Shown here piece by piece: positions 6,201 through 28,293 of a stretch of 32,000 nucleotides of DNA. The stretch spans positions 1,650,001 through 1,682,000 of the forward strand of contig NZ_CP007754.1 in assembly GCF_000757865.1 (NCBI RefSeq). The letters run 5' to 3'. The position numbers and the translations under genes are program-made. The stretch is from Prochlorococcus sp. MIT 0801. GTDB taxonomy: Bacteria > Cyanobacteriota > Cyanobacteriia > PCC-6307 > Cyanobiaceae. Under the pieces are notes generated by a model. The model saw nothing but the letters and a program-made list of their open reading frames with translations, was not told the origin of the DNA and searched no databases. Numbering within the stretch: position 1 is the first letter of the stretch; each line of letters opens with the position of its first letter.

Positions 6201-8507
6201 ATGACCATTAGCCCACCAGAAAAAGAACAAAAAAAAGAACCGGTTCTCGATAAACCTATCGAAACTGATGCAATCCCTGTAGATTTTTCCAAGCTTGATA
6301 AGCCTGGTTTTTGGTCAAAATCCCTTGCTAAAGGGCCAAAGACTACTACATGGATATGGAATCTTCATGCTGATGCGCATGATTTTGATACTCATGTTGG
6401 AGATCTCCAAGAAACCAGTAGAAAAGTATTTTCTGCTCATTTTGGACATCTAGCAGTCATCTTTATTTGGATGAGTGCAGCTTTTTTCCATGGAGCTCGC
6501 TTTTCTAATTATTCTGGATGGCTCTCTGATCCAACTCATGTCAAGCCAGGAGCACAAGTTGTTTGGCCAATAGTTGGTCAGGAGATGCTTAATGCGGATT
6601 TAGGCGGTAATTATCACGGTATTCAGATCACTTCTGGAATTTTTCAGATGTGGAGAGGCTGGGGAATTACCAATGAAACCGAGCTCATGGCTTTAGCTAT
6701 TGGTGCACTACTAATGGCAGCCATAATGTTGCACGGTGGCATATATCACTATCACAAAGCTGCTCCCAAGCTTGATTGGTTTAGAAATCTCGAGTCTATG
6801 CTCAATCACCACATAGCTGGTCTAGTGGGATTGGGTTCGATTGCTTGGGCTGGACATTGCATTCACATTGGTGCACCTACAGCAGCACTCATGGATGCAA
6901 TTGATGCAGGAAAGCCTCTAATTATTGATGGAATTCCAATTGCTTCGATTGCGGACATGCCTCTACCCCACGAGCTTTGCAATCCTGCTATTGCTAGTCA
7001 AATATTCCCTGGCCTCGCTGGAAGAACAGTTGAAAATTTCTTTACGACTAATTGGTGGGCGTTTAGTGATTTCCTAACTTTCAAAGGTGGTCTAAATCCA
7101 GTTACTGGTAGCTTATGGATGACAGATATTTCTCATCATCATTTAGCTTTTGGAGTACTAGCTGTATTGGGCGGTCATCTATATAGAACAATGTTTGGCA
7201 TTGGCCATAGCCTGAAAGAAATATTAGATAATCATGCTGGAGATCCAATTCTTTTCCCTGCTCCAAATGGACATAAAGGGATTTATGAGTTTTTAGCTAA
7301 TAGTTGGCATGCTCAGCTTGGTTTAAACCTTGCAATGATTGGCTCCTTGAGTATCATCATTTCCCATCACATGTATGCGATGCCCCCATATCCATACTTG
7401 TCGATTGATTACCCAACTGTCCTAGGTCTATTTACACACCATATGTGGATAGGAGGGTTATTCATTGTTGGTGCAGCAGCTCATGCTGGTATTGCAATGA
7501 TTAGAGACTATGACCCGGCTGTTCATATTGATAACGTTCTAGATAGAATCTTGAAAGCAAGAGATGCATTAATTAGTCATCTGAATTGGGCTTGCATGTT
7601 CTTAGGTTTCCATAGTTTTGGTCTTTATATTCATAACGATGTAATGCGTGCATTAGGAAGACCTGCAGATATGTTCAGTGATACAGGAATCCAACTTCAA
7701 CCTGTTTTTGCTCAATGGATTCAAAATATTCATAATTCAGCAGCTGGTTCTACCACTCTTGCTGGTGCAAACGTAAACCTTCAACCTGGATTAGTTAGTG
7801 AAGTTTTTAATGGTTCAGTAAGTCAAGTTGGAGGAAAAATTGGCATCGCTCCTATACCTTTAGGAACTGCTGATTTCATGATTCACCATATCCATGCTTT
7901 TACTATCCACGTAACCCTTCTAATTCTTCTAAAGGGAGTTTTATTCGCAAGGAGCTCCAGACTAATTCCTGACAAAGCGAATCTTGGATTTAGATTCCCA
8001 TGTGATGGTCCAGGCAGAGGAGGTACATGCCAAGTTTCATCTTGGGATCATGTTTTCCTTGGATTGTTCTGGATGTATAACGGCTTGTCAGTAGTTATTT
8101 TCCACTTCTCATGGAAGATGCAAAGTGATGTATGGGGTCTTACAGGAGGCAACTTCGCGCAAAGTTCCATAACTATCAATGGATGGCTTAGAGATTTCCT
8201 ATGGGCTCAGTCATCTCAGGTCCTAACAAGTTATGGTCAACCTATAAGCATGTACGGTTTGATGTTCTTAGGAGCTCACTTCGTTTGGGCATTCAGTCTT
8301 ATGTTCCTATTTAGTGGTCGTGGTTACTGGCAAGAGTTATTTGAGTCAATTATTTGGGCTCATAATAAACTTAAGTTGGCTCCAACTATCCAACCAAGAG
8401 CTTTGTCTATCACTCAAGGTCGTGCAGTAGGAGCAGCTCATTTCCTTCTAGGAGGAATTGCTACAACTTGGGCCTTCTTCCATGCTCGCTTAATCGGTCT
8501 CGGCTGA
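6201..8507 (+). CDS. psaA: Photosystem I P700 chlorophyll a apoprotein A1
   Basis: 768 aa, unmistakable PsaA. It has the FX cluster loop [19 protein letters not shown], 11-helix hydrophobic architecture and the [16 protein letters not shown] motif. Confidence 0.98.
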
Positions 8508-8528: not shown

Positions 8529-10757
8529 ATGGCAACTAAATTTCCATCTTTTAGTCAGGGTCTTGCTCAAGACCCTACAACCAGGAGAATCTGGTACGGC
8601 ATAGCTACTGCCCATGATTTTGAAAGTCATGACGGCATGACTGAGGAGCAGTTATATCAAAAACTCTTCTCTACTCATTTTGGTCACTTAGCCATAATCG
8701 GTCTTTGGGTGGCTGGCAACCTTTTCCACATTGCTTGGCAAGGAAACTTTGAGCAATGGGTTCTCGATCCACTCCATACTCGTCCAATTGCTCATGCAAT
8801 TTGGGATCCACATTTTGGACAAGGGCTTACTGATGCCCTAACTCAAGCTGGAGCGACTTCTCCAGTCAATATTGCTTATTCAGGCTTATACCATTGGTGG
8901 TACACCATTGGCATGAGAACTAATGAGCAACTATTTCAAGGTGCGATCTTTATAAACATCCTTGTTTGTTGGTTATTGTTTGCAGGATGGCTGCATCTTC
9001 AACCTAAGTACAGACCATCATTAGCATGGTTCAAAAATGCTGAGTCTCAGTTAAATCATCATTTGGCTGTTCTTTTTGGATTCAGTAGCATTGCTTGGAC
9101 AGGTCACTTGATTCATGTAGCCATCCCTGAGTCAAGGGGTATACACGTTGGCTGGGAAAATTGGTTAACTGTTATGCCTCATCCAGAAGGTTTAACTCCT
9201 TTCTTCTCAGGAAATTGGGGAGCTTATGCTCAAAACCCTGATTCGATTGATGCAGTTTTCGGAACTTCTCAAGGTGCAGGAACAGCAATATTTACATTTC
9301 TTGGTGGTCTTCATCCTCAAAGTGAATCACTTTGGCTAACAGATATTGCTCATCATCATTTAGCGATAGGAGTTGTGTTTATAATTGCTGGACATATGTA
9401 TAGGACTAACTTTGGCATAGGTCATAGTCTCAAGGAAATCATTGAAGCGCACAATACAAGTCACCCAAAAGATCCACATAGAGGTTATTTCGGGATAAAG
9501 CACAACGGTCTTTTCGAGACAGTTAACAATTCACTCCATTTTCAGCTTGGGCTAGCACTTGCTTCTCTTGGAGTGGCTTGCAGCTTAGTGGCTCAGCATA
9601 TGGGTGCATTACCTTCATATGCATTTATCGCAAGGGATTACACAACTCAGTCCGCTCTATATACCCATCATCAATACATAGCAATGTTCTTGATGGTTGG
9701 TGCGTTCTCTCACGGAGCAATTTTCTTTGTCAGAGATTATGATCCAGAGCTTAATAAAGACAATGTTCTAGCAAGAATCCTTAGTACAAAAGAAGCCTTA
9801 ATTAGCCACTTAAGTTGGGTAACAATGCTTCTAGGCTTCCATACTCTTGGAATTTATGTTCACAACGATGTAGTTGTAGCCTTTGGTACACCTGAAAAGC
9901 AGATTCTTATAGAACCAGTATTTGCACAGTTCGCACAGGCTGCTAGTGGAAAAATGATGTATGGATTTAATGCTTTGCTAGCAAATGCATCAAGTTCTGC
10001 ATCTATAGCTGCTAACTCCATGCCAGGTAATCACTACTGGATGGACATGATCAATAGACCAGATGCACTAACCAATTTCTTACCTATTGGACCTGCGGAT
10101 TTCTTAGTTCACCATGCGATTGCACTAGGACTACATACAACTGCTTTGATTCTTATAAAGGGTGCTCTTGATGCTAGAGGAACAAAACTAATTCCAGATA
10201 AAAAGGATTTAGGATTTGCTTTCCCATGTGATGGACCAGGTCGTGGAGGTACTTGTGATAGTTCTTCTTGGGACGCTACTTATTTAGCAATGTTCTGGGC
10301 CTTAAATACTATTGCTTGGATTACCTTCTATTGGCATTGGAAACATCTAGCAATTTGGATGGGTAATACCGCTCAATTCAATGAATCTGGTACGTATTTA
10401 ATGGGTTGGTTTAGAGATTATCTATGGCTAAATAGTTCTCAGCTAATCAATGGATATAACCCATTTGGTGTAAATGCTTTATCTCCATGGGCTTGGATGT
10501 TCTTATTTGGTCATCTCATTTGGGCGACTGGATTTATGTTCCTCATCTCTTGGAGAGGGTATTGGCAAGAACTTATCGAAACTCTTGTTTGGGCTCATCA
10601 AAGAACACCAATAGCTAATTTAGTTGGTTGGAGAGATAAGCCTGTTGCATTATCCATTGTCCAAGCACGATTAGTTGGTTTAACCCATTTCACAGTTGGA
10701 AACTTTGTAACCTTTGGTGCATTTGTTATCGCATCTACTTCAGGTAAGTTCGGATAA
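8529..10757 (+). CDS. psaB: Photosystem I P700 chlorophyll a apoprotein A2
   Basis: 742 aa, starting 21 nt after psaA. It has [36 protein letters not shown] and the FX loop [18 protein letters not shown]. Confidence 0.98.
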
Positions 10758-10780
10758 ATCTATAACAAGCTTCCAATCAA

Positions 10781-10815
10781 AAGAACACTGTCTTCAAAAG
10801 CAGTGTTCTTTTTTT
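10781..10815 (+). terminator. Rho-independent terminator of psaAB
   Basis: The 10-bp stem AAGAACACTG / CAGTGTTCTT has a 10-nt loop and is followed by a T7-8 run, 24 nt after the psaB stop. Confidence 0.8.
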
Positions 10816-10854
10816 ATGGGTACTAATCTCATGTTTATTAGATTATCTATAAAA

Positions 10855-11031
10855 ACTCTTGTTTGGGCTCATCAAAGAACACCAATAGCTAATTTAGTTG
10901 GTTGGAGAGATAAGCCTGTTGCATTATCCATTGTCCAAGCACGATTAGTTGGTTTAACCCATTTCACAGTTGGAAACTTTGTAACCTTTGGTGCATTTGT
11001 TATCGCATCTACTTCAGGTAAGTTCGGATAA
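10855..11031 (+). pseudogene. Second copy of the last 58 codons plus stop of psaB (gene fragment)
   Basis: It encodes [58 protein letters not shown], identical to the PsaB C-terminus. It explains track ORF 10714..11031. Confidence 0.85.
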
Positions 11032-11054
11032 ATCTATAACAAGCTTCCAATCAA

Positions 11055-11089
11055 AAGAACACTGTCTTCAAAAGCAGTGTTCTTTTTTT
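11055..11089 (+). terminator. Duplicated copy of the psaB terminator hairpin
   Basis: Identical hairpin plus T-run, as part of the 246-bp repeat. Confidence 0.7.
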
Positions 11090-11252
11090 ATGGGTACTCA
11101 GATTTATGAGATTATGTATTGATATTTATCAGCAAAATAGATCCATTGAATATCATGAAATTAGGAGTAGAAAACAAAAAAACAAAATAAATGAATTTCA
11201 GTTCAAGCTTTTGAAAAATATCAGCCAATTGAAGTAAATAATTTAGAGAATT

Positions 11253-11280
11253 AAAAAGCCTCTAAGATAAGAGGCTTTTT
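11253..11280 (-). terminator. Terminator downstream of psaL (symmetrical, potentially bidirectional)
   Basis: AAAAAGCCTCT-aagat-AAGAGGCTTTTT: a GC-containing stem flanked by an A-run and a T-run, 25 nt past the psaL stop. Confidence 0.7.
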
Positions 11281-11304
11281 AATATAAGTTCTTCTAGAAA
11301 AGTT

Positions 11305-11832
11305 TTAAGCTCCAAGTAAATGATATTCCTTAATCAAAGGTAGAACAGTATCTAAATGCAAAGTACCAATTAGCAACCAAGCAAAAACGACACCTCCTGT
11401 GCCTCCTAACCAAAAACCATTTGTAAAATCACTCCATCCTGCTCTTGTAAATAAATCGGAAGGAGGATTAGCTACTGTTGCATCAGGAGGTTGTACGTTA
11501 GGAGCCTTACCTGCAGCGTTGTAAAGAATAAAAAGGGCAGTCAATATTTGAATAGCTCCCACACCGCCAAGCAAACCTGCCGTTAAGGCAAAATCAGTAT
11601 TCCTTAAAGGCCCAGTCATAGAAAAAGGACCAAAAAGTAAATAACCAAAAATTGCGCCTGTTTCTAGACCTCTGAAGTTTGGCGATAGGCCCTCTCTATA
11701 GACAGGAAGATTATTGATAACCATCTTTGTAAACCAACCACTGTTCACTGGGGTTTGAAGGTTGCCAACGGTTGGGTCTGAAACTGTTTTCACAGCCCAC
11801 CTTTGCATAAGTGTTTCTTGAGATTTAGTCAT
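11305..11832 (-). CDS. psaL: Photosystem I subunit XI
   Basis: [28 protein letters not shown] and the following hydrophobic helices are typical PsaL. The track ORF begins at a TTG (11838); the ATG two codons later (11832) is the more likely start. Confidence 0.92.
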
Positions 11833-16126: not shown

Positions 16127-17152
16127 CTACCCAGCAATAAATACCATCGCAGAAACAAGAATAGCCGAAGCCAAAATCCCTATAGATGCTATTGACACGA
16201 TCTTTCCGGTGTTTAAGGAGACGGATACCGTTAACAATTCAGTTCTTGAGTCTCGTTTTTGTTGTGAATTAATTTGAGTTGGTGAATTACCTTTCTTATT
16301 GGCTTGAAATTTCTTCTGTGTTAGGGCTTTCTTCTCTGCTGCAGCTTTTTTATCTGCTGCGGCTTTCTTATTAGCTGCGGCTTTCTTATCTGCTGCGGCT
16401 TTCTTATCCGCTAAAGCTTTCTTCTCTGCTGCGGCTTTCTTATCTGCTGCAGCTTTTTTATCTGCTGCGGCTTTCTTATTAGCTGCGGCTTTTTTATCTG
16501 CTGCGGCTTTCTTATCCGCTAAAGCTTTCTTATCTGCTGCGGCTTTCTTATCTGCTGCGGCTTTCTTATCCGCTAAAGCTTTCTTATCTGCTGCGGCTTT
16601 CTTATCCGCTAAAGCTTTCTTCTCTGCTGCGGCTTTCTTCTCTGCTGCAGCTTTTTTATCTGCTGCGGCTTTCTTATCCGCTAAAGCTTTCTTCTCTGCT
16701 GCAGCTTTTTTATCTGCTGCGGCTTTCTTCTCTGCTGCAGCTTTTTTATCTGCTGCGGCTTTCTTATCCGCTAAAGCTTTCTTCTCTGCTGCGGCTTTCT
16801 TATCCGCTAACGCTTTCTTCTCTGCTGCGGCTTTCTTATTAGCTGCGGCTTTCTTATCTGCTGCAGCTTTTTTATCTGCTGCGGCTTTCTTATCTGCTGC
16901 GGCTTTCTTATCCGCTAAAGCTTTCTTCTCTGCTGCGGCTTTCTTATCTGCTGCGGCTTTCTTATCCGCTAAAGCTTTCTTCTCTGCTGCGGCTTTCTTA
17001 TCCGCTAACGCTTTCTTCTCTGCTGCGGCTTTCTTCTCTGCTAACGCTTTCTTCTCTGCTAAAGCTTTCTTATCTGCTAAAGCTTTCTTCTCTGCAGCAG
17101 CTTTCTTATCTGCTAACGCTTTCTTTTCTGCCTGAGCTGTTTGAACTTGCAC
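16127..17152 (-). CDS. Tail-anchored Ala/Lys-rich repeat protein: about 45 copies of the hexapeptide (A/L)A(E/D/N)KKA, then a short linker and a C-terminal TM helix
   Basis: 341-codon ORF with a GTG start and no internal ATG until the TM segment. Repeat units differ mainly by synonymous changes (AAG/AAA, GCC/GCT/GCA/GCG), which argues for coding constraint. The C-terminus is IVSIASIGILASAILVSAMVFIAG. Confidence 0.75.
   Translation of the reverse strand: MQVQTAQAEKKALADKKAAAEKKALADKKALAEKKALAEKKAAAEKKALADKKAAAEKKALADKKAAADKKAAAEKKALADKKAAADKKAAADKKAAADKKAAANKKAAAEKKALADKKAAAEKKALADKKAAADKKAAAEKKAAADKKAAAEKKALADKKAAADKKAAAEKKAAAEKKALADKKAAADKKALADKKAAADKKAAADKKALADKKAAADKKAAANKKAAADKKAAADKKAAAEKKALADKKAAADKKAAANKKAAADKKAAAEKKALTQKKFQANKKGNSPTQINSQQKRDSRTELLTVSVSLNTGKIVSIASIGILASAILVSAMVFIAG
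16325..17131. repeat. 18-bp tandem repeat array (about 45 units) inside the Ala/Lys repeat gene
   Basis: Plus-strand units take the form GCTGCGGCTTTCTTATCT, GCTGCAGCTTTTTTATCT or GCTAAAGCTTTCTTCTCT. Confidence 0.9.
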
Positions 17153-17399: not shown

Positions 17400-19190
17400 A
17401 TGGAAGACTCTTATAAGAAAGAGAATAAAGAAGTCAATGAAGAAAAAACATTCTCAATTCCATCTTCATTAGAAAAAATTAAGGAGAATATTTCAATATC
17501 AAACAATACTCCTTATAAACCATCTAAAGAACAAATAATTAAGCAAGCATTTCAATTTCATTCAGAAGGCAACATTTCAGAAGCATCAAAATATTATCAA
17601 TATTTTATTAATCAAGGATTCAAAGATCATAGAGTTTTTTCTAATTATGGAAGTATTTTGAAAGATCTTGCCAAACTAAAAGAAGCAGAAATTTCAACTC
17701 GTAAAGCCATTGAACTTAATCCTAATTTCTCAAATGCTCATTACAATCTGGGGAATATACTAAGTGATCTTGGCCAACTAAAAGAAGCAGAAATTTCAAC
17801 TCGTAAAGCCATTGAACTTAATCCTAATTTCTCAAATGCTCATTATAGTCTCGGGAACATCCTGAACAATCTTGGCCAACTAAAAGAAGCAGAAATATCA
17901 CTTCGAAAAGCTATTGAACTTAATCCTAATAACGCTAATGCTCATTATAATCTTGGAAACATATTGAGCGAGCTTGGAAAGAAAAAAGAAACAGAAATAT
18001 CACTTCGAAAAGCTATTGAACTTAATCCTGAGCTAGCTCAAGCACATTCCAATTTAGGAAGAATATTGAAAGATACTGGCAATTTGCAAGAAGCAGAAAT
18101 ATTAACTCGAAAAGCTATTGATCTTAAGCCCGATTTGGCTGAGGCTCATTCCAATCTGGGACAAATCTTGAATGATCTTGGAATCTTACAAGATGCAGAA
18201 AACTCTACTCGAAAAGCTATTGAACTTAATCCTGATTTTGCTGAGGCTTATTTAAATCTATCTATGATAGAGCTTCTCAAAGGGAATTATCAATCTGGTC
18301 TAGATAATTATGAATTTAGATTCAAAGTAAATAAACCCAACCTTCCTCATGGCTTAACAAAAATGAAACGAAGAGACAGTAGCAAGTTACAAAAAGAAGA
18401 AAAGATCTTAGTCATCACTGAACAAGGCTTAGGAGATACTATTCAATATATGCGTTACATTCCATATCTAAAAAATCAAGGTTTTAATATTTCTTTTTGT
18501 GCTCAAACTAAACTACATCGATTAATACAAGCCTCAGGTATTGAAAAAAATCCTTTAACTCCTGAGCAAGCAAGTCAAGTTTCAGAAGGTACGTATATTC
18601 CATTATTATCTTTACCTAGATATTTAAAAGTAAGTCCAAATAATCCAATAATTTCAGAGCCATATATCTTTCCAACAAATGAACTAAAAAAGAAATGGAA
18701 AAAAATACTCTCTATAGAAAAAAAACCAATTATTGGAATTAATTGGCAAGGTAATCCAGCAATGGAAAAAATCAATTACAAAGGACGTTCTATACCTTTA
18801 GAAACATTCTCTATGCTTTTTGATCGAAATGACATAAGAATGCTTTCTCTTCAAAAGGGATTTGGTTCAGAACAACTCGATCATTGCTCATTCAGGAATA
18901 AGTTTGTTAAATCCCAACCTATAGTTAATTCAACCTGGGATTTCCTAGAAAATGCTGCCATAATTGAAAATTGTGATTTGATTATTACTTGTGATACTTC
19001 AATTGCTCATTTAGCTGGAGGGATGGGAAAAAAAGTTTGGCTACTGTTAAGAGATATCCCCTTTTGGACTTGGGGACTTGAAAAAGAAAATACATTTTGG
19101 TATCCATCGATTAGATTATTTCGTCAAAAAATTCGTCATAACTGGAATGAGGTTATGGAAAGAGTCGCTAAAGAAATAAAAAACTTATAA
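17400..19190 (+). CDS. TPR-repeat protein fused to a GT9 (heptosyltransferase-like) glycosyltransferase domain (paralog A)
   Basis: About 7 consecutive 34-aa TPR units carry the consensus AEAHxNLGxILxDLGxLKEAExSxRKAIELNPNF. The C-terminal half has GT9-type motifs (ILVITEQGLGDTIQYMRYIPYLK; ITCDTSIAHLAGGMGKKVWLLL). Confidence 0.85.
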   Translation: MEDSYKKENKEVNEEKTFSIPSSLEKIKENISISNNTPYKPSKEQIIKQAFQFHSEGNISEASKYYQYFINQGFKDHRVFSNYGSILKDLAKLKEAEISTRKAIELNPNFSNAHYNLGNILSDLGQLKEAEISTRKAIELNPNFSNAHYSLGNILNNLGQLKEAEISLRKAIELNPNNANAHYNLGNILSELGKKKETEISLRKAIELNPELAQAHSNLGRILKDTGNLQEAEILTRKAIDLKPDLAEAHSNLGQILNDLGILQDAENSTRKAIELNPDFAEAYLNLSMIELLKGNYQSGLDNYEFRFKVNKPNLPHGLTKMKRRDSSKLQKEEKILVITEQGLGDTIQYMRYIPYLKNQGFNISFCAQTKLHRLIQASGIEKNPLTPEQASQVSEGTYIPLLSLPRYLKVSPNNPIISEPYIFPTNELKKKWKKILSIEKKPIIGINWQGNPAMEKINYKGRSIPLETFSMLFDRNDIRMLSLQKGFGSEQLDHCSFRNKFVKSQPIVNSTWDFLENAAIIENCDLIITCDTSIAHLAGGMGKKVWLLLRDIPFWTWGLEKENTFWYPSIRLFRQKIRHNWNEVMERVAKEIKNL

Positions 19191-22094: not shown

Positions 22095-24647
22095 ATGGAA
22101 TCTATTGATAAAGATCAAGGAAAAAATAAGATCACTAAAATTAAAATATACCCAGTTCCATATGAGTTAGAAGAAATCAAAGAAAATCTTACTATTGTTA
22201 TCAATACTTCATCTAAAGATTCTAAACAACAAGTAATTAATCAGGCATTTAACTTTCACTCAAAAGGAAATATAGCACAAGCACTAAAATATTATCAACA
22301 GATAATAAATCAAGGATCTAATGATTATAGAGTTTTTTATAATTATGGGTTAATACTAAAAGATCTTGGGAAAGTAAAAGAAGCAGAAGTATCACTTCGC
22401 CGCGCAATTGAAATTAATCCTGATTTCGCTAATGCATATTTAAGTCTTGGAAATTTATTAAGAGGTCTTAGGAATTTTAAAGACGCAGAAATATATACTC
22501 GCAAAGCAATTGAAATCAATCCAAACTTCGCAGAAGCTCATTCCAATCTGGGAAGTATCTTACAAGATATTGGTAAATTAAAAGAAGCAGAAGCATCACT
22601 TCACAAAGCCATTGAACTCAATACTAATGTAGGAGAGGTTCATTATAACTTAGGGATCATTTTAAAAGATCTTGGTAAAATACAAGAATCTGAAAAATCC
22701 ACTCGCAAAGCAATTAAGATTAATCCTAACTTTGCAAATGCTCATATGTATTTAGGAACCATATTAAAAGATCTTGGCAAATTAAAAGAAGCTGAAAAAT
22801 CCACTCGCAAAGCAATTGAAATCAATCCTAACTTTGCAAATGCTCATATGAATTTGGGAACCATATTAAAAGATCTTGATAAATTACAAGAAGCAGAAAT
22901 CTCTACTCGTAAAGCCATTGACATTAATCCTAATTCCGCAGAGGTTCATTACAACTTGGGAATCATATTAAAAGATCTTGGCAAATTAAAAGAAGCTGAA
23001 AAATCCACTCGCAAAGCAATTGAAATTAATCCTAATTTTGCAGTTGCTCATAATAACCTGGGAGATATATTAAGAGCTCTTGGGAATATACAAAAGTCTG
23101 AGTTATCAATAAGAAAAGCTATTGAAATAAATCCTAATTTAGCTTTTGCTCACTTGAATCTGGGGAGAATATTAGTAGATCTAGACAAATTAAAAGAAGC
23201 AGAATTATCTACCAAAAAAGCTATTGAACTCAAACCTGAACTAATAATGGCGCATTTCAATCTTGGAATTATTTTTATAAATCTTGGGAAATATGATGCT
23301 GCTATAAATTGCTATAAAAAAGCTATAAAGTTAAACAATTCTTTCTCACCAGCAAAGGTTGGATTACTTGAATCTAAAAAAGATATATGTGACTGGAGTG
23401 ATCAAAAAGCTGATAATACTTGGATTAAGACTCTTGGTTTTGAAGGTGACGCTGTAATTCCATTCCCTTTCTTCTTTTTTGAAGATAATCCTTTAAAAGA
23501 TTTAAAAAGAGCCCAAAACTTCTATAAACAAAATTTCAAACAAAATGCTGTTAATTTACCTATTTTCAAAAATAAAAGAATTCATATAGGTTACTTCTCT
23601 TCTGACTTTAAAGATCACGCAACTATGCATCTAATTGCTTCTATTTTTGAATTACACGATAAATCAAAATTCAAAATATATTTATATTCATTTACTCCTA
23701 GAGAAGATATATATACAGAGAGAGCTAAACAATCTGGATGTTTTTTTAGAGATATAAAAAATTTGAATACTATTGAAGCTGTTGAATTAGCAAGGAGAGA
23801 TAGACTCGATATAGCTATAGATCTTAAAGGTTATACTAAACATTCTAGAATGAATATCTTTTCATCTCGAGTAGCTCCTATACAAATAAATTATCTTGGA
23901 TATCCAGGATCTCTGGGTGCAGAAACTATTGATTATATAATTGCTGATAATATTTTAATCCCAAAGGAAAAGGAAAGATTTTATTCTGAAAAAATTATAC
24001 GAATGCCAAATTGCTATCAATGTAATGATAATAAAAAAGAAATTTCTAAAGAATCTATTTCCCGTAGAGATTTTAAACTGCCTGATAAAGGATTTATATT
24101 TACTTGTTTTAATTCTAATAAAAAAATATCTCCAAAAGAATTTGATATTTGGATGAGATTACTTAAAGAAGTAAAAGGAAGCGTACTATGGTTATATAAA
24201 TCTAATACTTGGGCAATTCAAAACCTATGTAAAGAAGCAGAGATAAGAAATATTGATTCAGATAGATTATTTTTTGCTAACAAGCTTCCATTAGAAAAAC
24301 ATTTAGCCAGATATTCTCTTGGTGATTTAGCACTTGATACTTTTAACTGTAATGGTCACACTACGACCTCAGATGCTTTATGGGCAGGTTTACCAGTTCT
24401 AACAAAAATTGGAGAAAGCTTTTCTGCAAGAGTATCTGCAAGTTTACTAACTTCTCTAGGGATTCCAGAACTCATTACACATAATGAGAAAGAATATGAA
24501 GAGAAAGCTATTCACATAGCAAATAATCCTGATGTCCTCAAGAACCTAAAGTCGCAAGTAATTACTTTGAGGAATAAATCACCACTTTTTAATTCAAAAT
24601 TATTTACAAAGAATCTAGAAAGTAAATTCCTGGAACTTGTAAAGTAA
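22095..24647 (+). CDS. TPR-repeat protein fused to a GT41 (O-GlcNAc transferase / SPINDLY-like) domain (paralog C)
   Basis: About 11 TPR units are followed by GT41 hallmarks: IHIGYFSSDFKDHATMHLIASIFELHD and LDTFNCNGHTTTSDALWAGLPVLTKIGESFSARVSASLLTSLGIPELI. Confidence 0.9.
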   Translation: MESIDKDQGKNKITKIKIYPVPYELEEIKENLTIVINTSSKDSKQQVINQAFNFHSKGNIAQALKYYQQIINQGSNDYRVFYNYGLILKDLGKVKEAEVSLRRAIEINPDFANAYLSLGNLLRGLRNFKDAEIYTRKAIEINPNFAEAHSNLGSILQDIGKLKEAEASLHKAIELNTNVGEVHYNLGIILKDLGKIQESEKSTRKAIKINPNFANAHMYLGTILKDLGKLKEAEKSTRKAIEINPNFANAHMNLGTILKDLDKLQEAEISTRKAIDINPNSAEVHYNLGIILKDLGKLKEAEKSTRKAIEINPNFAVAHNNLGDILRALGNIQKSELSIRKAIEINPNLAFAHLNLGRILVDLDKLKEAELSTKKAIELKPELIMAHFNLGIIFINLGKYDAAINCYKKAIKLNNSFSPAKVGLLESKKDICDWSDQKADNTWIKTLGFEGDAVIPFPFFFFEDNPLKDLKRAQNFYKQNFKQNAVNLPIFKNKRIHIGYFSSDFKDHATMHLIASIFELHDKSKFKIYLYSFTPREDIYTERAKQSGCFFRDIKNLNTIEAVELARRDRLDIAIDLKGYTKHSRMNIFSSRVAPIQINYLGYPGSLGAETIDYIIADNILIPKEKERFYSEKIIRMPNCYQCNDNKKEISKESISRRDFKLPDKGFIFTCFNSNKKISPKEFDIWMRLLKEVKGSVLWLYKSNTWAIQNLCKEAEIRNIDSDRLFFANKLPLEKHLARYSLGDLALDTFNCNGHTTTSDALWAGLPVLTKIGESFSARVSASLLTSLGIPELITHNEKEYEEKAIHIANNPDVLKNLKSQVITLRNKSPLFNSKLFTKNLESKFLELVK

Positions 24648-28104: not shown

Positions 28105-28224
28105 TATGGCACAGTATGGACACTCATGATTCAATCATTTTCGTAATATCTAGTCACTGACTGGCATTTGAGTCCTTATGAAGCACCCTGAACCAAAATA
28201 AATACGGAGAGGGAGGGATTCGAA
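28105..28224. repeat. Copy C (reference copy) of the repeat: the flank downstream of tRNA-Ser plus the tRNA 3' end
   Basis: See copies A and B. The last about 20 nt (28205-28224) are the acceptor and T-arm 3' part of the intact tRNA. Confidence 0.6.
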
Positions 28225-28293
28225 CCCTCGACAGAAGTTACCTCCTGTAACTCCTTAGCAGGGAGCCGCTTTCAACCACTCAGCCACCTCTCC
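28205..28293 (-). tRNA. tRNA-Ser (anticodon GCU), 89 nt, long variable arm, no encoded CCA
   Basis: The minus strand reads GGAGAGGTGGCTGAGTGGTTGAAAGCGGCTCCCTGCTAAGGAGTTACAGGAGGTAACTTCTGTCGAGGGTTCGAATCCCTCCCTCTCCG. The acceptor is GGAGAGG/CCTCTCC, the anticodon loop is CT-GCT-AA, the T-loop is GGTTCGAATCC, and there is a class II variable stem. Confidence 0.95.

Follow-up and report, generated by a model that had tools for sequence, protein, structure and literature searches.

The 32,000-nucleotide (nt) stretch of the Prochlorococcus sp. MIT 0801 genome studied here (contig NZ_CP007754.1, positions 1,650,001 to 1,682,000; hereafter the window, with positions counted from its first letter) carries, directly behind the photosystem I gene psaB, a tandem array built from the 3' end of that gene. 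The explanation that best accounts for the data as a whole, and which we hold with good confidence, is that the array is an old tandem segmental duplication, variable in copy number and specific to Prochlorococcus of the LLI type. In the window, a 246-nt block at positions 10579-10824 recurs at 10853-11098 with zero mismatches and an offset of 274 nt. This repeat, first pointed out in an initial annotation of the stretch, was recovered by repeat finding and by Tandem Repeats Finder (TRF), which reported a period of 274, 1.9 copies, 100% matches and a score of 1040. A perfect repeat of this length is far beyond chance expectation.

Structure of the repeat unit

Each unit contains psaB codons 685-742 with the stop codon (10581-10757 in the first unit), a short 3' untranslated region (UTR) and a hairpin followed by a run of seven U residues (U7). 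The content given previously, namely the last 58 psaB codons with the stop, the 3' UTR and the terminator hairpin, is therefore confirmed. On the left side, homology of the repeat continues for 5 nt more, with 2 mismatches between TATCG at 10574-10578 and TATAA at 10848-10852. The 28 nt placed between the perfect blocks represent the tail of unit 1 and are homologous to the tail behind unit 2, so that the true structure is a 274-nt unit repeated head-to-tail. The segment had been described as a 28-nt spacer; its length is correct, while its status as a separate spacer is not. The two tails, 10825-10852 and 11099-11126, differ by a 5-nt indel and at least 4 substitutions in 28 nt, in agreement with the loose similarity noted for them before.

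According to the unit alignments, repeat unit 1 (274 nt, 10574-10847, plus strand) consists of the psaB 3' end, stop codon, 3' UTR, terminator T1 and a tail of type X. Repeat unit 2 (10848-11126, plus strand) is comprised of a psaB 3' fragment (10855-11031, including the stop), 3' UTR, terminator T2 and a diverged tail of type Y (11099-11126). The duplication junction TATCTATAAAAACTCTTG (10843-10860, plus strand) joins downstream TCTAT to psaB ...GAAACTCTTG and probably lies at a TAT-N-GA microhomology. The functional gene, an open reading frame (ORF) of 742 aa plus stop at 8529-10757 on the plus strand, includes its last 58 codons (10581-10754) in repeat unit 1.

The array in related genomes

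The exact 742-aa PsaB of the window is encoded on 23 contigs longer than 1 Mb, including CP000553 (Prochlorococcus NATL1A). The window lineage is LLI-clade (NATL-type) Prochlorococcus, with convergent psaA-psaB and psaL. Identity between the window and NATL1A or other genomes with the exact PsaB reaches 96-98% across 8.2 kb, and none of them is identical. In the compared set, L003 is NATL1A and L004 is CP114781, the chromosome of strain MIT0915 from the low-light LLI clade (PMC10470740). L010, L012, L097, L098, L099 and L100 are metagenome contigs, and L006 is a single-cell genome closely related to the window. Unit copies are designated c1, c2 and c3, where c1 is psaB proper.

Among strains with identical PsaB, the gap between psaB and psaL is 285 nt in L001, 549 nt in L002, NATL1A, L005 and the window, and 829 nt in MIT0915. 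Repeat finding detected no repeat in the 285-nt class, 2 copies (period 272-275, 94-97% identical) in the 549-nt class, and 3 copies with a period of 277 in MIT0915. Metagenome contigs L010, L012, L099 and L100 have 2 copies each, with a period of 275. Across carriers, the period ranges from 272 to 277 nt, and close relatives differ in the number of copies: L001 has one, the window, NATL1A and L005 have two each, and MIT0915 has three. L097 and L098 contain at least three units.

The junction TCTATAAAAACTCTTG is common to the window and seven other sequences (NATL1A, MIT0915, L005, L010, L012, L099 and L100). In addition, the Y-type tail allele of window unit 2, characterized by a 5-nt deletion, GA, G and G, also follows distal copies of MIT0915, L005, L012, L099 and L100. 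The initial annotation had suggested comparison with related genomes as a check of strain-specificity. The duplication is not specific to one strain, being shared by four complete or near-complete genomes (NATL1A, MIT0915, L002 and L005) and by six metagenome contigs.

A tblastn survey of 80 species-representative picocyanobacterial genomes, covering high-light (HL) clades, other low-light (LL) clades and Synechococcus/Cyanobium, disclosed no second copy of the psaB 3' end. The sole extra match among these representatives is the psaA paralogue. No description of the array was found in the searchable literature.

Origin and age of the duplication

In single-copy genomes, the sequence TATTGA is present at both breakpoints, in psaB (CTTATTGAAACTC) and about 40 nt beyond the terminator (TCTATTGATATT). 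We propose that a single illegitimate recombination linked two occurrences of the TAT-N-GA motif, one located ~40 nt past the psaB terminator and the other at psaB codons 683-684. Such a join would duplicate a unit of about 274 nt, made of the last 58 codons, stop, 3' UTR, terminator and a short tail. As the comparison of genomes shows, the array has since grown and shrunk through unequal crossing-over, giving one, two, or at least three copies.

The junctions themselves can be compared with this model. The NATL-type junction deviates by 2 nt from the microhomology prediction; TATAAAAACT, although different from what a simple microhomology join would produce, recurs in seven other sequences. 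A second type of array was found in L097 and L098, which are ~88% identical to the window, have a 3' UTR resembling that of the L015/L017 lineage and contain at least three units. Junctions in this lineage are TATAGAAACT and TATTGAAACT, of which TATTGAAACT corresponds to the predicted microhomology product in L097. The junction variants of L097 are TCTATAGAAACTC and GATATTGAAACTC, and the second is the exact join predicted at the TATTGA microhomology.

A tree based on the first 2050 nt of psaB, located outside the repeat, places the window outside the group (L001,(L003,(L004,L005))), with 2.2-2.5% divergence. The duplication is therefore older than that split, and the single-copy state of L001 is most simply explained by secondary contraction, i.e. 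loss. The suggestion of a recent duplication made in the initial annotation is not supported: strains that are ~2.3% diverged in psaB have both the junction and the distal-type tail in common with the window, and similar arrays exist in a lineage at ~12% divergence.

Two other sources were considered and ruled out. Integration at an att site or of an island does not account for the array, as only 28 nt lie between the blocks, these are homologous to the normal downstream sequence, and there is no integrase or inserted element. The psaB gene of cyanophage P-TIM68, as a source of the extra copy, is just 81% identical to the window; this value was obtained for the 3' end of the phage gene (KM359505, 186827-187116) in comparison with window positions 10401-10964.

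The distal copy is a relic of psaB

In every other array-bearing genome, the distal copy is 1.6-6.5% diverged from psaB proper. Changes in distal copies were polarised against 80 psaB genes from the species-representative picocyanobacterial genomes. Derived states common to the distal copies of NATL1A, MIT0915, L005, L010, L012, L099 and L100 were observed at unit positions 25, 29, 31, 66, 71, 76, 96, 137, 140, 143, 152 and 215. Among the replacements, R>K, P>Q, G>D, V>I and S>F strike residues that are invariant in the 80 psaB genes. Both extra copies of MIT0915 carry a change of W to a stop (KTLV*), which truncates the ORF at codon 17. A 1-nt deletion causes a frameshift in the distal copy of L010, and the extra copies of L097 are interrupted by TGA and TAA. 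The stop, the frameshift and the replacements at invariant residues lead to the conclusion that the distal copy is a gene fragment and not a conserved gene for a micro-protein. Four clustered synonymous differences, at positions 137-152, correspond to states that other LLI psaB genes also show, and this cluster more likely reflects allelic history than purifying selection. The comparison thus shows the non-functional distal copy gathering damaging mutations, chiefly close to its 5' edge.

Reading through the first terminator, an ORF of 71 codons plus stop (10816-11031, plus strand) links 13 residues with PsaB residues 685-742. It is intact in the window and not conserved. The composition of this ORF, 13 residues and the last 58 residues of PsaB, was given correctly in the initial annotation, although its ATG is at 10816-10818 instead of 10815. 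An exact look-up of the 71-aa product of the window returned no record. Environmental versions of the ORF (P0001-P0005) show different replacements in each. Across carriers, neither a consistently intact ORF nor purifying selection, the two features expected of a small-protein gene, was observed.

Short ORFs with the PsaB C-terminus found elsewhere in cyanobacteria (P0013, P0014, P0018, P0027 and P0103) were considered as parallel duplications and rejected as a group. The two that were checked, P0027 and P0103 (L095 596-796 and L096 1496-1711), are the ends of psaB genes that a frameshift or a stop divides in draft assemblies. A separate case is P0109 from a JGI metagenome (103 aa), in which an N-terminus annotated as cytochrome oxidase subunit 3 is followed by the last ~50 residues of PsaB; this probably reflects a chimera, either in the contig or in the gene call.

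Gene conversion and unequal crossing-over

Alignment of the copies indicates that strains differ in which distal stretches were rewritten with the psaB-proper sequence. In L005, c2 retains only the markers of the 5' edge: compared with c1, 3 of the 35 positions at the edge are different, versus 1 of 144 interior positions. In c3 of MIT0915 the middle markers are missing. In c2 of the same strain, distal markers on the 5' side are followed by a 3' end that has the T and the ATC insertion specific to c1 of this strain, and by a tail of type X. This hybrid is the expected product of an unequal crossing-over that makes a third copy. NATL1A has strain-specific changes in both tails. In L097 and L098, the interiors of the copies carry psaB alleles of their own lineage (L015/L017 type) and stops and indels occur in the 5'-most 35 nt of every extra copy, so these arrays again show a decayed edge with a homogenised interior.

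In the window, all distal markers are erased over 246 nt, while the Y-type tail at 11099-11126 is kept, and its perfect distal copy is the only one among the nine array-bearing sequences examined. Both window copies carry a 1-nt deletion in the 3' UTR (TATAA-CAAGC) that was otherwise seen only in L006; homogenisation therefore occurred inside the window's own lineage. Mosaic tracts, together with lineage-specific changes present in both copies of one genome (in the window, NATL1A, MIT0915, L097 and L098), form the pattern anticipated for concerted evolution.

The comparison indicates that psaB proper repeatedly overwrites the interior of the distal copy through gene conversion, and that in the window a recent conversion tract spans the whole 246 nt. 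The edges of the perfect block are sharp because the left one coincides with the duplication breakpoint, and at the right one the conversion tract meets the diverged tail. Ongoing gene conversion had also been put forward in the initial annotation. It finds support in other strains, where this duplication has a distal copy that is diverged and has been rewritten in patches. Transfer in the other direction may also occur: copy 1 of L010 (psaB proper) has, at alignment column 183, the synonymous GGA state typical of distal copies, which might be explained by reverse conversion, from the relic into the gene.

Terminators in the array

The hairpin T1 (10779-10815, plus strand) has a 13-bp stem, an 8-nt loop and U7. 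It folds with -19.2 kcal/mol (z = -4.7), and none of 200 shuffled sequences folded as well. T2 (11053-11089, plus strand) is identical to T1 in the window and retains full strength. Both consist of a stable hairpin containing G+C followed by a U tract, the structure by which intrinsic (Rho-independent) terminators are recognized. A simple terminator consensus scan of the window did not list the T1 hairpin. In comparative folding, both window hairpins have -16.1 kcal/mol. The same value was obtained for the psaB-proximal hairpin in eight of the ten sequences that could be folded there, and the remaining two have -15.6 and -16.5 kcal/mol. Among hairpins of extra copies, 7 of 12 folded are weaker (-4.2 to -12.1 kcal/mol) as a result of uncompensated stem substitutions, and U7 is kept in all those folded.

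A sigma-70 scan revealed no plus-strand promoter-like site inside the array, and the AT-rich, -10-like hexamers of the tails are uninformative. Rfam 15 at the gathering threshold gave nothing in the 10.5-11.3 kb region; the only match in the window is a tRNA-Ser at 28205-28293. Further downstream, an inverted repeat of 14 bp without mismatches, having a loop of 6 nt and flanking A and T runs (11250-11283, not assigned to a strand) represents a terminator behind psaL, probably bidirectional. This hairpin is probably a third barrier to psaAB read-through.

Physically, the main effect of the array is probably the addition of one more intrinsic terminator to the region that separates psaAB from the convergent psaL-psaI, which we would regard as a by-product of the duplication and not as its reason. 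The tandem terminator proposed in the initial annotation is physically present, but distal hairpins decay in other strains and so give no indication of selection for it. Antisense RNA to psaB has been reported in strain MED4 (PMC2518516).

Alternative explanations

Two of the alternatives concern the perfect identity of the window copies. An artefact of assembly or polishing, which could have created the second copy or its base-perfect match, was among the possibilities named in the initial annotation, and the fact that only the window has a perfect distal copy is in its favour. However, junction and Y-type tail are identical in independent assemblies, including the Sanger-finished NATL1A and the complete chromosomes of MIT0915 and CP138967; one and the same junction would not be created by mis-assembly in Sanger-finished, closed and metagenomic sequences obtained independently, and polishing would not systematically pick the psaB state at 12 or more positions. 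A short-read contig in SRR29904083, which encodes the exact PsaL, HEAT protein and glycosyltransferase of the window, ends 236 nt past psaL, at ~11069. Judged from coordinates alone, this end precedes the 3' edge of the perfect block by 30 nt. A k=31 graph would be expected to branch at this point if the same sequence had two continuations. We consider the artefact very improbable. If, on the other hand, the duplication arose de novo in the window strain very recently, zero differences across 246 nt would simply reflect its youth. In that case the tails should not differ as strongly as they do, by the 5-nt indel and at least four substitutions in 28 nt. Furthermore, the junction TATAAAAACT, which is not a simple product, is shared with seven other sequences, and the distal tail of the window is the Y allele of old distal copies in other strains. 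The probability that remains for such an event is practically negligible.

The other alternatives ascribe a function to the array. One of them sees it as a selected insulator, in which two or three serial terminators and a buffer of 274-550 nt prevent antisense entry of psaAB transcription into psaL-psaI, as well as psaL read-through into psaB, with copy number as the means of tuning. This proposal would agree with the convergent position of psaB and psaL, 285 nt apart in the single-copy state, with the full hairpin and U7 in every unit and the preservation of U7 in all copies folded, and with the persistence of the array in at least two LLI sublineages; the MED4 antisense RNA (PMC2518516) indicates that antisense transcription at this locus exists in the genus. 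Opposed to it are the seven of 12 extra hairpins that are weakened, down to -4.2 kcal/mol, while T1 stays between -15.6 and -16.5 kcal/mol, the close relative L001 and other LLI representatives that manage with a single copy, and the 174-nt coding fragment, superfluous for insulation. Selection of this kind seems unlikely to us. Decidedly unlikely is also a broader proposal, in which the array would be a selected insulator of tunable copy number whose stacked terminators set psaL/psaI antisense levels, or in which a 3'-UTR-derived RNA with psaB sequence would arise from read-through transcripts that stop at T2 or T3. If either were true, LLI cells would possess a heritable, recombination-driven dial on the balance of photosystem I (PSI) subunits. 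Finally, the initial annotation raised the idea of a micro-protein with a PsaB helix. In the form considered here, translation of transcripts passing the terminator would start with the ATG at 10816 and give a membrane peptide of 71 aa with the last PsaB transmembrane helix, having a role in PSI assembly or regulation. The ORF is indeed intact and in frame in the window, L005, L012, L099 and L100, and gene callers annotate it as a 71-aa protein with a PsaA_PsaB domain. Nevertheless, it is truncated at codon 17 in both extra copies of MIT0915, frameshifted in L010 and broken by TGA and TAA in L097, and its replacements affect psaB-invariant residues. The start codon is placed immediately behind a strong terminator, with no Shine-Dalgarno motif visible in the sequence, and the in-frame junction simply results from the position of the breakpoint. 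We find a micro-protein hardly tenable.

Several points also weigh against an old duplication homogenised by conversion. Although a single origin of the NATL-type and L097/L098-type arrays is parsimonious, it is not proven, and repeated duplication at the same microhomology is possible. Neutrality does not fully explain why a useless repeat of 274 nt has lasted so long where populations are very large and under strong selection for economy. A conversion tract that reaches the 5' breakpoint must end within ~24 nt of homology, which is short. Moreover, sequence comparisons such as these do not distinguish conversion within the genome from recombination involving a near-identical relative, and the perfect identity of the window copies would stand or fall with that one assembly. 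LLI species representatives show one copy, but they are short-read single-cell assemblies in which collapse is possible. Searches with the exact junction and with the distal-copy marker haplotype gave 0 matches in JGI metagenome contigs. The marker haplotype had 0 matches in viral contigs as well; these contigs showed neither a tandem copy nor the junction, and there is no sign of phage involvement.

Gene neighbourhood and other repeats in the window

Upstream of psaB, psaA (768 aa) occupies 6201-8507 on the plus strand as an ORF, with Pfam PF00223 detected on the orthologous gene. On the opposite side of the array, psaL (175 aa, 11305-11832, minus strand; ORF with Pfam PF02605) is convergent with psaB.

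Repetitive sequences were also observed in other parts of the window. At 16127-17152 (minus strand), a 341-aa ORF is composed of about 45 tandem hexapeptides A[A/L]A[D/E]KK, with an 18-nt period in DNA and a TRF score of ~1000. It has a hydrophobic C-terminal segment and resembles a membrane-anchored protein of charged and highly repetitive sequence. TPR-like repeats of 102 nt (34 aa) are located on the plus strand at 17658-18238 and 22353-23237, inside ORFs of 596 aa and 850 aa. They belong to a stretch of low GC content (28-32% GC, ~19-26 kb) that resembles a variable island.

Significance and comparison with known systems

The array illustrates in nature how duplication, unequal crossing-over and gene conversion affect one of the most conserved genes of a streamlined marine cyanobacterium, and its marker map makes single conversion tracts visible. 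The diverged relic is at the same time a potential source of deleterious conversion into psaB. Two practical caveats follow. The 71-aa "PsaA_PsaB" ORFs downstream of psaB in LLI genomes and metagenomes should be regarded as relics, and the locus may collapse or break in short-read assemblies. If the array were selected as a stack of terminators, it would provide a simple system to study insulation between convergent, highly expressed operons.

Site-specific integration of islands or prophages also creates direct repeats (attL/attR) in which the end of a conserved gene is duplicated, but the copies of the array are separated by only 28 nt and are not accompanied by an integrase or an inserted element. 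Tandem intrinsic terminators are known behind highly expressed operons, such as rrnB T1-T2 of E. coli. Similarly, the array places two to three serial terminators, each a hairpin with a U tract, behind an operon whose expression is very high and whose downstream neighbour is convergent. In contrast to rrnB T1-T2, these terminators are copies made by a segmental duplication that includes coding sequence, and they decay in distal positions.

Concerted evolution by gene conversion is represented by tufA/tufB in Salmonella and E. coli and by multi-copy psbA in cyanobacteria. The array has in common with these genes that copies of the same genome are closer than orthologous copies, that identity tracts are mosaic, and that homogenised interiors are bordered by diverged edges. 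It differs from them in having one functional gene and a 58-codon fragment, placed in direct tandem 28 nt apart and not dispersed. Conversion in the array would effectively proceed from gene to relic, the reverse direction being removed by selection.

In the bacterial duplication-amplification model, microhomology-mediated, RecA-independent tandem duplication is followed by RecA-dependent expansion and contraction. The head-to-tail arrangement, the copy polymorphism (one, two, or at least three) and the hybrid middle copy in MIT0915 correspond to it, as would a junction at the TAT-N-GA microhomology, which is probable. Unlike laboratory duplications, which are large and quickly lost, the unit of the array is very short (274 nt) and has lasted across lineages that are 2-12% diverged. 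The pattern of the array fits well-known processes, namely microhomology duplication, RecA-type expansion and contraction, and concerted evolution by gene conversion, and speaks for ordinary genome evolution and not for a new function.

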